Positions 27,441 to 37,872 of a stretch of DNA of 64,000 bases are shown here, piece after piece; position 1 is the stretch's first letter; each line of letters begins with the position of its first letter. Under the pieces are notes generated by a model that saw nothing but the letters and a program-made list of their open reading frames with translations, did no database searches and was not told the DNA's origin. The stretch is from an uncultured Eubacteriales bacterium (GTDB taxonomy: Bacteria > Bacillota > Clostridia > Christensenellales > Aristaeellaceae), in contig CACYGB010000013.1 of assembly GCA_902773895.1 (NCBI GenBank), positions 1,050 to 65,049 of the forward strand, read 5' to 3'. Position numbers and translations under genes: made by a program.

Positions 27441-27470
27441 TTGACTTGCGGCAGAAGATTATGATATAAT
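27441..27470 (+). promoter_or_regulatory. Sigma-A-type promoter of the Opp-like operon
   Basis: TTGACT, an 18-nt spacer, then TATAAT, located 56 nt upstream of the ATG at 27526. Confidence 0.6.
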
Positions 27471-27525
27471 ACTTCGACCATACGGGCAAAACCTGATGGG
27501 AAATATTAAGGGAGGGAAATCTCAG

Positions 27526-30027
27526 ATGAAGAAAGTTGTATCCATCGCTTTGACGCTGATCATGGTGCTTTCTTCCGTGTCTGCCCTGGCTGAAGGCTTC
27601 GTGCTGGCCGACTCTTACGATGTCGGAACCCGCGCTTTCAACGCCGGCAATGTGACGCTGGAAGCCGCGCCTGCTGGCGGCGGCACCGTGACCACGGACG
27701 TTTTCGCCGGTGAAGAAGGCAAGGACTACACCGACGAAAAGGTGTACACCTACAATGATTACACCAGCGCCATCACCTCCAGCATGAACTGGGACGTGCT
27801 GAGCTGGGAAACCAACGAAGACTCCGCCATTACGGACTACATCATTTCCGGCTTCTACACCTTCAAGATGAACAGCGACAAGACCGGCTATTCCATCGTG
27901 CCGGAAGCCGCCGCTGAAATGCCTGTGGATGTGACCGCCGAGTATGTGGGCAAGATGGGCGTGAAGGAAGGCGAAACCGGCAAGGCCTGGCGTATCGCCC
28001 TGAACCCCGAAGTGTGCTTCAACGACGGCACCAAGGTCAACGCTGATGACTACATCTATTCCATGCAGCAGCAGCTGAACCCCAAGATCCTCAACCGCCG
28101 CGCGGACTCCTGGTATGACGGCACCTTCTCCATCGTCAATGCCAAGAACTATCTGTACGCCGGCAAGACCACCTACGACGCCATCCAGGACACCGCTGAA
28201 AACCTGCTGGCCGCCGGCACCGAAGTGTTCCTGGACCTGGGCTTCTGGGGCATCGTGGGCGCGCCTGACAAGGACGGCAACCCCGCTCCTCAGTATGTGT
28301 CCGTTGCCGATGAAACCCTGTACCGCGACGCCGCCGTGGAAGAAGGCAAGGACGAAGACTGGGTTTCCGCCAAGTATCTGTATGAAACCTACCTGGCTGC
28401 CGGCATGCCCTACAACAGCTACGCTCCCGAATACCTGAAGGTCGCCAACATCGCCAAGGCCGTGACCTGGGACGATGTGGGCCTCAAGAAGATCGACGAC
28501 TACACCATCGACTTCATCCTGGAAGCCCCTGTGGCTGAACCCGCTTTCTATGTGCCCTACAACCTGAGCGGCAACTTCCTGGTGGAAAAGAGCGTCTATG
28601 AAGCCTGCAAGACCTTCTACAAGGACGGTGCCGAAGTGGCCACCGAAGAAGAAGCGGACACCGTGAAGAGCGACTACTGCCGTTCTCTGGAAAAGACCGT
28701 TTCCTACGGCCCCTACATGCTGACCTCCTTCCAGCTGGACAAGGAATACACCCTGAGCCGCAACGAGAGCTGGTTCGGCTATCATGACGGCCGTCACCTG
28801 GGCCAGTACCAGACCGACAACATCGTGGTGAACGTGATCACCGACCACGCCACCCAGATCCTGGCCTTTGAAAAGGGCGAAATCGACGGCGTGTCCCTGC
28901 AGAACGAGGACATGGAAAAGTACGCCGCCAGCCAGTACATCAAGTACGAGCCCCAGAGCTACACCACCAAGCTGACCTTCAACACCAACTACGCCAAGCT
29001 GGTGGAGCACGGCACCAACAGCCAGATCCTGGTCATCGACGAATTCCGCAAGGGCTTCGCTTTCGCCCTGGACGCCAATGACTTCGCCACCGCTTACACC
29101 GCGGCCGGCACCGGCGGCTATGGTATCCTGAACTACATGTACTGCTACGATCCCTTCTCCGGCGCGCTGTACCGCGAAAGCGAACCCGCCAAGAAGGCGC
29201 TGGTTGAACTGTTCGGCATGACCTACGGCGAAGGCGGCGAATACGCTACCCTGGACGAAGCCTACGAAGCCATGACCGGCTACAACATGAGCTATGCCCA
29301 GGAACTGATGGCCATCGCGGCTGACAAAGCCATCGCGGCCAAGATCTGGGACGGCGAAAGCGACATCGTGCTGGATATCCGCCTGTACAACAGCGATACC
29401 ATCTATGTGCAGATGTACAACTACTTCCTCAAGCAGCTGACCGAAGCTGTGAAGGGCAGCAAGTTCGAGGGCAAGATCACCATGACCATGACCCCCGACG
29501 CCGACTACTATGAAACCAACTACTCCGGCGGTGCGGACATGATCTTCACCACCTGGGGCGGCGCCACCATGGATCCCTTCGGCGTGTTCGCCCGCTGCTA
29601 CACCGACGCGGCTGACGGCTCCGGCAACCAGATGGAATACGGCTATGACACCGACGCCATCGCTGTGACCTTCAACTTCGGCGGCGAAATCGGCGAAATC
29701 ACCGACTCCCTGAACCACTGGGCCATGTGGGCCAACAACGCCACCTCCGACGTGCCTGTGATCTTCGAAAAGCTGGGCGCCTTCGCTGATTATGCCTACA
29801 GCACCCGCTGCGAAATCGTGGCCGGCGTGGAGCACGCCTTCATGAACTGGTTCACCACCACCTCCCTGTACTACCGCAACGTGGCCAGCCTGACCAGCCA
29901 GAAGGTCAACAACGGCAGCAACACCTACCTGACCCTGATCGGTTTCGGCGGTCAGGAATTCGTCACCTACAATTATGATGACGCTGCCTGGGCTGATTAC
30001 ATTGCGAACAACACCCTGGTGTACTAA
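27526..30027 (+). CDS. Oversized family-5 (OppA/DppA-like) ABC substrate-binding protein
   Basis: 833 aa with a signal peptide (MKKVVSIALTLIMVLSSVSALA) and no lipobox Cys. It shows SBP_bac_5-like segments and strongly biased, highly-expressed-type codons. A GGGAGGGA RBS lies upstream. Confidence 0.75.
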   Translation: MKKVVSIALTLIMVLSSVSALAEGFVLADSYDVGTRAFNAGNVTLEAAPAGGGTVTTDVFAGEEGKDYTDEKVYTYNDYTSAITSSMNWDVLSWETNEDSAITDYIISGFYTFKMNSDKTGYSIVPEAAAEMPVDVTAEYVGKMGVKEGETGKAWRIALNPEVCFNDGTKVNADDYIYSMQQQLNPKILNRRADSWYDGTFSIVNAKNYLYAGKTTYDAIQDTAENLLAAGTEVFLDLGFWGIVGAPDKDGNPAPQYVSVADETLYRDAAVEEGKDEDWVSAKYLYETYLAAGMPYNSYAPEYLKVANIAKAVTWDDVGLKKIDDYTIDFILEAPVAEPAFYVPYNLSGNFLVEKSVYEACKTFYKDGAEVATEEEADTVKSDYCRSLEKTVSYGPYMLTSFQLDKEYTLSRNESWFGYHDGRHLGQYQTDNIVVNVITDHATQILAFEKGEIDGVSLQNEDMEKYAASQYIKYEPQSYTTKLTFNTNYAKLVEHGTNSQILVIDEFRKGFAFALDANDFATAYTAAGTGGYGILNYMYCYDPFSGALYRESEPAKKALVELFGMTYGEGGEYATLDEAYEAMTGYNMSYAQELMAIAADKAIAAKIWDGESDIVLDIRLYNSDTIYVQMYNYFLKQLTEAVKGSKFEGKITMTMTPDADYYETNYSGGADMIFTTWGGATMDPFGVFARCYTDAADGSGNQMEYGYDTDAIAVTFNFGGEIGEITDSLNHWAMWANNATSDVPVIFEKLGAFADYAYSTRCEIVAGVEHAFMNWFTTTSLYYRNVASLTSQKVNNGSNTYLTLIGFGGQEFVTYNYDDAAWADYIANNTLVY

Positions 30028-30268
30028 TCGCACAAGACCAGGCCGGGCTTGCGCCTGTGCCTGAAAGCGCGGGCATGGAGGGTTTTTCCCTCCATGCCCG
30101 TCGCGCTTGCCGGTATGTTTTTCATTTTTTGGAAGGGCATACCGGCAGCCGCCTGTCCATCCTCCGCTGCGCATCTTCCCTTTGCGCGGACGGACGGAAA
30201 TCGGCCCGGCGTGAAAATGAAAGAGGCTTTTACGCCTGGGAGAAAAATCAAGCGGAGGGGAAAACGGA

Positions 30269-37401: not shown

Positions 37402-37805
37402 AAAACAAGCGCGTGATCCCCTGGCTGGTGGAGATTGGGCTTTGCCTGCTGTGCGCCCTGGCGGTGGCGCTGCGCCGCGGCGTGTTTACCGCCGGGGATC
37501 CGGTGAAGGTGTACAGCGGATTGTGCGACGCGTTTTTCGTGCCGGGCATCCTGCTGTTCTGCTTCGGGCTGCTGGCCTTCAGCGCCCGAGGCGGCATTTT
37601 CGACATCTTCTCCTACGGCGTCAAAAGCCTGAAGGTGCTGTTCACGCCCTTTGGCAAGCCGGAAAAACACCAGCGGTACTATGACTACAAAATGGAAAAG
37701 GAGGCCCTGCGCGGCAAGCCCAAGCCCCGCACCCTGATCCTGGGGCTGGCGTTCATGGCGCTGGCCGGCGTGTGCCTGCTGCTGTTTTACCAGGCGGGAG
37801 GCTGA
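37398..37805 (+). CDS. DUF3899-like small membrane protein
   Basis: 135 aa with a TTG start overlapping the OppF-like stop and a GAAGGAG RBS. It has four hydrophobic segments. Confidence 0.55.
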   Translation: MKNKRVIPWLVEIGLCLLCALAVALRRGVFTAGDPVKVYSGLCDAFFVPGILLFCFGLLAFSARGGIFDIFSYGVKSLKVLFTPFGKPEKHQRYYDYKMEKEALRGKPKPRTLILGLAFMALAGVCLLLFYQAGG

Positions 37806-37835
37806 AGGCCGATCCTGGGAAACGGCAAGGCTGAA

Positions 37836-37872
37836 ACCGTGAAGAGCGGTGATCTCTTCACGGTTTTTTCAT
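37836..37872 (+). terminator. Rho-independent terminator ending the Opp-like operon
   Basis: Stem ACCGTGAAGAG / CTCTTCACGGT followed by TTTTTTC. Confidence 0.75.

Follow-up and report, generated by a model that had tools for sequence, protein, structure and literature searches.

An enlarged Opp-type importer with inserted domains defines a conserved, apparently undescribed subfamily in Bacillota

A six-gene operon in a 64,000-nt stretch of contig CACYGB010000013.1 from an uncultured Eubacteriales bacterium (the whole stretch is referred to below as the window) encodes an Opp-type ATP-binding cassette (ABC) importer whose proteins are far longer than those of canonical systems, which raises the question of whether these lengths are real and what kind of transporter they specify. 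In the usual description, a type-I ABC importer has compact, soluble ATPases, and the loops of its permeases are short. We consider it likely, with a probability of about 60%, that the operon encodes a working type-I importer of the Opp/Dpp (PepT, TC 3.A.1.5) group, most likely for oligopeptides, belonging to a conserved Bacillota subfamily in which the extra domains would have the roles proposed below; this reading is built from sequence comparison and structure prediction. Our literature searches on Opp ATPase insertions and on Christensenellaceae Opp found no description of the oversized architecture. We could not find the subfamily described in the literature searched, and it is apparently undescribed, which supports the proposal of the initial annotation that the locus holds an undescribed variant of an Opp-type importer.

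The genes lie on the forward strand within a single promoter-to-terminator unit (27441-37878). A sigma-70-type promoter-like site (27441..27470; TTGACT, an 18-nt spacer, TG and TATAAT, with 11/12 matches and an extended -10) precedes the gene of the substrate-binding protein (SBP; 27526-30027, 833 amino acids, aa), whose ATG follows the ribosome-binding site AAGGGAGGG. The SBP gene is followed by oppB (30269-31231, 320 aa), oppC (31228-32766, 512 aa), oppD (32768-34942, 724 aa), oppF (34939-37401, 820 aa) and a gene of the DUF3899 family (37398-37805, 135 aa), and the unit closes with an intrinsic terminator composed of a 14-bp hairpin (37833-37867) and a T run (37833..37878 in all). Each start codon in the operon has a GGAG-type ribosome-binding site on its 5' side. 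Three junctions have a 4-nt overlap, which reads ATGA at oppB/oppC and oppD/oppF and TTGA at oppF/DUF3899, and oppC and oppD are separated by 1 nt; read directly at the junctions, these overlaps agree with the earlier view of a co-translated unit. The SBP-oppB spacer of 241 nt contains two strong hairpins (30055..30146), one of them a perfect 12-bp stem with a TTTTT loop, which are probably a partial terminator or a processing site that would set the SBP:permease ratio. An Rfam scan of the short leader found no element, and a riboswitch or T-box in the leader was rejected on that ground. By Pfam and NCBIfam, each of the five transporter proteins belongs to the Opp/Dpp family: Pfam finds SBP_bac_5 in the SBP, BPD_transp_1 and BPD_transp_1_N in OppB, OppC_N and BPD_transp_1 in OppC, a split ABC_tran with oligo_HPY in both OppD and OppF, and DUF3899 in the sixth protein. 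Transcription signals, open reading frames (ORFs) and Pfam thus agree on one unit of five Opp-like components and a DUF3899-like protein, as originally annotated, and ORF listing with translation, on which all gene sizes here are based, returns the same 833, 320, 512, 724 and 820 aa.

In its general composition the system resembles canonical OppABCDF and DppABCDF (E. coli 8z21 and 8z1v; M. tuberculosis OppABCD 8j5q), with a family-5 SBP, OppB and OppC permeases and two oligo_HPY nucleotide-binding domains (NBDs), and its cores match canonical Opp/Dpp structures with E-values of 1e-44 to 1e-114. Judged against the lengths of E. coli OppC (302 aa), OppD (336 aa) and OppF (333 aa) in PDB 8z21 and against the 543 positions of the OppA profile, four of the five transporter components are oversized. 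The SBP exceeds its reference by about 290 aa, OppC by about 200, OppD by 370, and OppF by an arm of about 115 aa together with a 395-aa module. OppB has a normal 320 aa and six hydrophobic segments, so that the initial description of an importer in which every component is oversized holds for the SBP, OppC, OppD and OppF and fails for OppB, whose normal length that description had itself recorded. The excess over a canonical Opp system is large, as claimed, and comes to about 1,350-1,400 residues rather than the roughly 1,500 first estimated. The operon further differs from canonical Opp/Dpp by its sixth gene and by the lack of the C-terminal Cys motif of M. tuberculosis OppD.

Could the long genes be artefacts of fused ORFs, mis-assembly or wrongly chosen starts? 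Alternative upstream starts in the ORF listing would lengthen the reading frame of OppF to 866 aa and that of the SBP to 843 aa, and the choice of start therefore matters; the chosen starts, however, carry the ribosome-binding sites and overlaps described above. Two independent ENA assemblies of the same organism, one with the record label STEW19, which we take to be a rumen set of metagenome-assembled genomes (MAGs), and independent gene callers give 724, 820 and 135 aa (the last being 130 in one of them). Full-length homologues number in the hundreds and align over their entire length: those of OppF, with 800-860 aa, represent >110 distinct 90%-identity clusters among the top 120 (53-100% identity), and those of OppD, with 695-775 aa, form a similar number. 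The inserts, moreover, lie in frame inside single NBDs and leave both ATPase halves intact. An artefact has practically no probability left and is already refuted by conservation; the check for artefactual gene lengths, set beforehand, found the lengths kept across many genomes and assemblies.

The order SBP-B-C-D-F-DUF3899 and the gene sizes recur in about 20 Clostridia MAGs from rumen and gut (species-representative genomes), including entries labelled Christensenella, Christensenellales and 'Faecalibacterium sp. CAG:74'. A search with a 4-sequence alignment of the OppD insert returned mostly a single human-gut species, and about 60 metagenome contigs of this CAG:74-like species have the same operon. 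One OppF cluster contains 2,799 member sequences. The gene order is also common to nine further divergent lineages. In what follows, L001-L021 denote Christensenellales-type relative loci, L109-L117 contigs of divergent members, and L022 the Haloplasmatales genome 'Ca. Inordinaticella fortuita' 4B, in which the family is present (4957-13764, GC 0.30) with a lipoprotein SBP and a 424-aa OppF. Sizes in the divergent lineages span 769-941 aa for the SBP, 311-332 aa for OppB, 492-544 aa for OppC, 700-897 aa for OppD, 326-507 aa for OppF and 130-143 aa for the DUF3899 protein. OppB identity is 77-98% among L001-L021 and 45-62% in the divergent lineages. The family core is a big SBP (about 770-940 aa), the OppC loop, the OppD insert and DUF3899; most members also have the helical OppF arm, and the Christensenellales-type branch adds the OppF membrane module. 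The genes that flank the operon vary among genomes, and the operon is therefore an autonomous unit. One divergent contig, L117 (1-5073), has two tandem oversized SBP genes 5' of a single transporter.

OppD retains intact Walker A, Q-loop, signature, Walker B and H-loop motifs, with GESGSGKS, FSGGMRQR and ILICDEPTTALD read directly. Insertion sites were located by alignment to solved Opp/Dpp structures, in which OppD residues 1-118 correspond to residues 5-118 of M. tuberculosis OppD and residues 489-681 to 122-316. Between them lies a 370-aa all-alpha insert (aa 119-488; 33122..34231), placed within the helical subdomain just after the Q-loop helix. AlphaFold2 models of OppD and OppF, built with family alignments, predict several helices of 37-54 residues in this insert, at a predicted local distance difference test score (pLDDT) of mostly 80-96. 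Searched alone against 1.84 billion representative proteins, the insert matched 107 clusters, its matches started near residue 119-128 in nearly every full-length protein (about 650-900 aa), and in that set it was not seen outside the OppD context. Identity between lineages is 17-35%, with conserved motifs including P[DN]FFxIGY and IDPLxxxKDSxAYTF. A 15-sequence profile of the insert found no match among PDB sequences. An intein or mobile insertion was considered for this position and rejected: the insert is a conserved all-alpha domain, and Pfam and NCBIfam find no intein, homing-endonuclease or transposase domain in it. The division of an ABC fold by a long helical insertion recalls the ATPases of the SMC, Rad50 and UvrA type, and OppD gives a weak match to SMC_N (PF02463) over both halves, at 18.7 bits under the gathering score of 40 bits; Foldseek adds matches of low probability to models of viral SMC and SbcC. 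The OppD insert, in contrast to these ATPases, is a multi-helix structure without a long antiparallel coiled coil and hinge, and its context is a membrane importer. The C-terminal Cys cluster is absent from OppD, which reads GDAFAARNRYA where M. tuberculosis OppD has g.CpFapRCp, a motif that presumably binds an iron-sulfur cluster. The OppD of L110 (10001-12694) carries a low-complexity C-terminal tail of about 190 aa.

The catalytic motifs of OppF are likewise intact (GESGCGKT and FSGGQRQR read directly, with the Q-loop, Walker B and H-loop also present), and its AlphaFold2 model has a mean pLDDT of 81. Its NBD starts near residue 402, and the preceding residues form an added module (34939..36123) that consists, by hydropathy and AlphaFold2, of a first transmembrane helix (TM1, aa ~7-30), an ectodomain (~31-349), a second transmembrane helix (TM2, ~350-378) and a linker. 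The excess length of OppF is therefore real, with the correction that about 395 of its residues belong to this N-terminal membrane and ectodomain module and are not an insert in the ATPase. The ectodomain of ~320 aa is acidic and is predicted to be all-helical, with about 16 helices, block-mean pLDDT mostly 80-95 and one disordered loop at 154-164; TM1 lies within a long N-terminal helix, and TM2 is the second long helix of the model. Over 62 homologues the mean charge is about +3 in the N-tail and about -22 in the ectodomain, which together with the two conserved hydrophobic helices fits a topology with the N-terminus inside, the ectodomain outside and the NBD inside. The module was seen only in the Christensenellales-type branch and is absent in L022 and L109-L117. 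A further addition, the helical arm of ~115 aa (aa 472-590; 36352..36708), lies by alignment between the Walker-A beta region and the Q-loop: residues 402-471 correspond to M. tuberculosis OppD 345-426 and residues 591-770 to 431-609. AlphaFold2 places the arm helices at 477-505, 507-569 and 575-592. The arm is absent in L110, ~55 aa long in L111 and about 100-115 aa elsewhere. The C-terminal domain of OppF has a single invariant Cys.

Some smaller observations concern the same protein. The motif (A/S)FY..F….YLEF occurs three times in the ectodomain (aa ~107-285; 35250-35800), and the ectodomain halves align in hhalign with a probability of 39% and an E-value of 3e-4, so that an internal duplication of helical hairpins is possible. 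In L115 (3954-5477), OppF bears a 65-aa Lys/Pro/Ala-rich N-terminus instead of the folded module. A 662-aa metagenomic protein, P0244, has, besides the RNA-polymerase beta domains PF04560 and PF00562, a segment that shares 54% identity with part of the OppF module; a chimeric contig or an error in gene calling is the probable cause.

In OppC the additional sequence occupies the loop between TM1 and TM2. OppC_N covers residues 36-79 and BPD_transp_1 residues 319-508; residues 26-79 align with E. coli OppC 15-68 and residues 282-506 with 82-300, which, together with hydropathy, delimits an extracellular insert of ~200 aa (aa ~80-281; 31465..32070). The insert is rich in Tyr, Gly and Asn, and invariant residues in the loop persist out to the Haloplasmatales homologue. 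The MalF P2 periplasmic loop of MalFGK2-MalE contacts and positions the SBP in a type-I importer. The OppC loop is similar as a large extracytoplasmic domain in a permease loop, an analogy of function only: permease family and loop position differ, no sequence relationship links the two, and an OppC-SBP contact is only inferred. The S. aureus Opp3 permease equivalogs NF045471 and NF045475 score below their cut-offs, at 244 and 275 bits against 480 and 450 bits.

Another check set beforehand asked whether the extra segments are well-characterised domains. The answer was negative: scanned alone, the OppD and OppC inserts have no Pfam or NCBIfam match and the OppF extras no significant one. The three helical extras (OppD insert, OppF ectodomain and OppF arm) are mutually unrelated, with hhalign probabilities of <1%. 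Foldseek searches with the whole OppF and OppD models against PDB, and with OppF against BFVD, returned only matches driven by the NBD. A word-indexed search with the N-terminal 400 aa of OppF returned 6 fragments only, missed known homologues and is uninformative.

The extra segments might also be tolerated lineage-specific expansions that have no specific function. The inserts do evolve faster than the NBDs, the commonest residue per column reaching 48-63% in the former and 92-95% in the latter; the OppF arm ranges from 0 to 115 aa, and some lineages have added low-complexity tails. Such an origin appears improbable, however, given that the OppD insert and the OppC loop are kept in every lineage sampled even at identities of 17-35%, that motifs are conserved and that folds are predicted confidently. 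Each complex has kept about 1,400 additional residues across deep divergence, which argues for selection.

Enlarged Opp ATPases had been tentatively, and correctly, mentioned for Mollicutes in the initial annotation, and the operon might simply be the annotated Mollicutes-type enlarged Opp (NCBIfam NF043078-NF043081), with nothing new about it. NF043079 and NF043078 are indeed the best NCBIfam matches of OppD and OppF, respectively; the resemblance is only partial. Scores fall far under the cut-offs, at 463 against 740 bits for OppD and 383 against 800 bits for OppF, and the inserts scanned alone match neither profile. Window OppD residues 4-74 correspond to positions 2-72 of NF043079 and residues 80-135 to positions 298-353, so that the Mollicutes OppD insert (profile 73-297) comes before the Q-loop and the window insert (119-488) after it. 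In OppF the site is shared: residues 401-485 correspond to NF043078 positions 2-86 and residues 631-815 to 464-649, placing the Mollicutes insert at the same pre-Q-loop site as the window arm, with sequence homology between the two not established. The Mollicutes OppF profile begins at the NBD and has no membrane module. The profiles of the Mollicutes permeases, with 307 positions for OppC (NF043080) and 388 for OppB (NF043081), point to an OppC of normal size and an enlarged OppB, the reverse of the arrangement here. A Walker A motif is present in M. hominis OppA (P100), which at 961 aa is likewise oversized (PMC3179953); none was found in the window SBP. The family is nevertheless present in the Haloplasmatales genome, which sits among early-diverging Mollicutes (bioRxiv 10.64898/2026.06.16.731841), and a shared origin of the OppF arm is therefore possible. 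Taken as a whole, identity with the Mollicutes systems is hardly probable, and we retain the reading of a separate Bacillota subfamily.

What would such an importer carry? The SBP is a family-5 protein (cluster C, OppA-like; PF00496 at E 1e-35). Its signal peptide ends in ALA, directly before EG, and lacks a lipobox Cys. The family profile aligns with peptide-binding proteins in three blocks, from which follow an N-terminal extension, ~120 additional residues separating the first block from the second, and lesser additions further on; the extra segments, about 290 aa over canonical, are thus scattered through the fold. The N-terminal extension, about 55-60 aa long (…GKDYTDEKVYT), is conserved in the Christensenellales-type branch. 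A PDB sequence search with the C-terminal region of the SBP gave no matches. Among PDB sequences the best matches of the family profile are peptide binders of Gram-positive type, namely 6npo, PrgZ, MppA, DppE and OppA (E 1e-14 to 1e-6; the first four at 1e-14 to 1e-8), and oligosaccharide binders match far worse (E about 5e-5 to 6e-4). In one divergent locus, L113, a gene for an M3 oligoendopeptidase (PepF) adjoins the operon. The profile neighbours of the SBP and this PepF neighbour make oligopeptides the likeliest substrate, which we think probable.

The sixth protein matches PF13038 along the whole profile (positions 1-88 of 88) at 72.1 bits, where the gathering score is 23.4 bits, and has three hydrophobic segments. 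A DUF3899 gene is found directly 3' of oppF in every divergent locus except L115, the gene in this slot in L113 having no Pfam record, and a homologue is located 3' of oppF in most Christensenellales-type loci. In the window operon, L109 and L111-L114, oppF and the DUF3899 gene share 4-8 nt. The oppA-oppBCDF-tldR operon of E. faecalis V583 also has a DUF3899 gene embedded in it, in antisense (bioRxiv 10.64898/2026.09.22.753285). The operons are alike in having a DUF3899 gene within an Opp operon and differ in its orientation. The two cases suggest a general Opp-DUF3899 link in Bacillota.

Under our preferred reading, the importer would run a normal transport cycle, in which the SBP docks, the NBDs close and access alternates. 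The OppC loop, with the OppF ectodomain where present, may serve as a platform on which the large SBP docks outside the cell, by analogy with MalF P2 and its hold on MalE. Both the OppD insert and the OppF arm are expected to emerge from membrane-distal or lateral faces of the NBDs and could build an assembly in the cytoplasm, beneath the NBD dimer or at its side, regulating the ATPase or recruiting partners such as peptidases, and DUF3899 would be a sixth, accessory membrane subunit. A bolder version, which we regard as quite unlikely, has a six-subunit importer with an energising ATPase that is itself membrane-spanning: in the Christensenellales-type branch, the ectodomain exposed by OppF would, with the OppC loop, sense or hold the SBP and signal through the transmembrane helices to the NBD, the OppD domain and the OppF arm would gate ATP hydrolysis or hand peptides to partner enzymes, and DUF3899 would be a general Bacillota Opp subunit. 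The architecture departs from the textbook description by ~1,400 extra residues, conserved and largely predicted to be well folded, and, in one branch, by an NBD subunit that bears two transmembrane helices and an ectodomain. Should SBP docking, ATPase control or downstream processing of peptides be coupled through the inserts, a textbook transporter class would gain a new regulatory layer. The family is common in uncultured Christensenellales-type bacteria of gut and rumen, where it may matter for nitrogen acquisition. DUF3899, an uncharacterised family, is now linked to Opp systems, and the Haloplasmatales homologue may connect the family to the unexplained enlarged Opp proteins of Mollicutes.

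Several points weigh against this reading, the first of which concerns the ligand. In the SBP motif TWGGATMDP (aa ~675-683; window 29548-29574), the family has Ala, Ser or Met at the third position past the invariant Trp. At that site 6npo has Asp (WxxD; WspD) and the family does not, in an alignment that is low-scoring. We take the Asp three residues after Trp to bind the peptide alpha-amino group in OppA and DppA; given its absence from the family SBPs, the ligand or the binding mode could therefore differ. This touches the possibility that the system imports something other than plain oligopeptides, such as glycopeptides, muropeptides, oligosaccharides or opine- or metal-chelate-like ligands, with the extracellular extras handling a bulky substrate. 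Family-5 SBPs bind all such classes; binders of agrocinopine, nickel and oligosaccharides are also among the matches of the SBP profile, with weaker E-values, the protein is so divergent that a single-sequence PDB search reaches only E about 1e-4, and the hosts are fibre-degrading gut and rumen bacteria. We nevertheless judge this alternative rather unlikely: besides the lead of peptide binders among the profile matches and the adjacent PepF in L113, OppB, OppC, OppD and OppF are closest to oligopeptide systems in NCBIfam, and no glycoside hydrolase or other pathway gene is linked to the operon in any locus.

The remaining points concern structure and anchoring. AlphaFold2 gave the OppD NBD core low confidence, its input alignments were shallow (53-83% identity), and the apparent beta-rich character of the OppC loop is a view from composition only. 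The roles of the extra domains are likewise inferred, and we hold them with low confidence. Six of the eight lineages without the OppF module have an SBP with a classical lipobox. This co-variation of module and lipobox gave rise to the idea that the OppF ectodomain holds the SBP in place of a lipid anchor. The idea is weakened, since the co-variation amounts to one evolutionary event, and the two remaining lineages, L110 and L117, have a non-lipoprotein SBP and also lack the OppF module. In the window, a MalE-like SBP (MKKILALVLAAMMVLSMASFAAADD…; 42953-44164) and a secreted protein (…TALAEGE…; 40228-41649), both on the reverse strand, lack a lipobox Cys. Loss of the lipid anchor may therefore extend across the organism, as the MalE-like SBP indicates, which leaves the tether idea weak. 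The exported proteins of the window organism seem to use signals of the signal peptidase I type, which bears on its envelope type and on SBP retention.

The operon has a somewhat lower G+C content (0.56-0.60 at window positions 28000-32000) than its flanks (0.63-0.65), which could reflect membrane-protein composition or a horizontally moving unit, the latter fitting the non-conserved neighbours. In the window, frr and a ribF-like gene lie upstream of the operon, and a two-component system and a maltodextrin cluster lie downstream. A regulatory link to the downstream two-component system was rejected because the neighbours are not conserved. The window also encodes PolC, a Bacillota marker. In the maltodextrin ABC operon (window 44250-56049) the MalF-like permease has 500 aa; genes for an alpha-amylase, for a GH77 4-alpha-glucanotransferase and, next to each other, for two paralogues of glycogen phosphorylase (779 and 826 aa) come after the operon.

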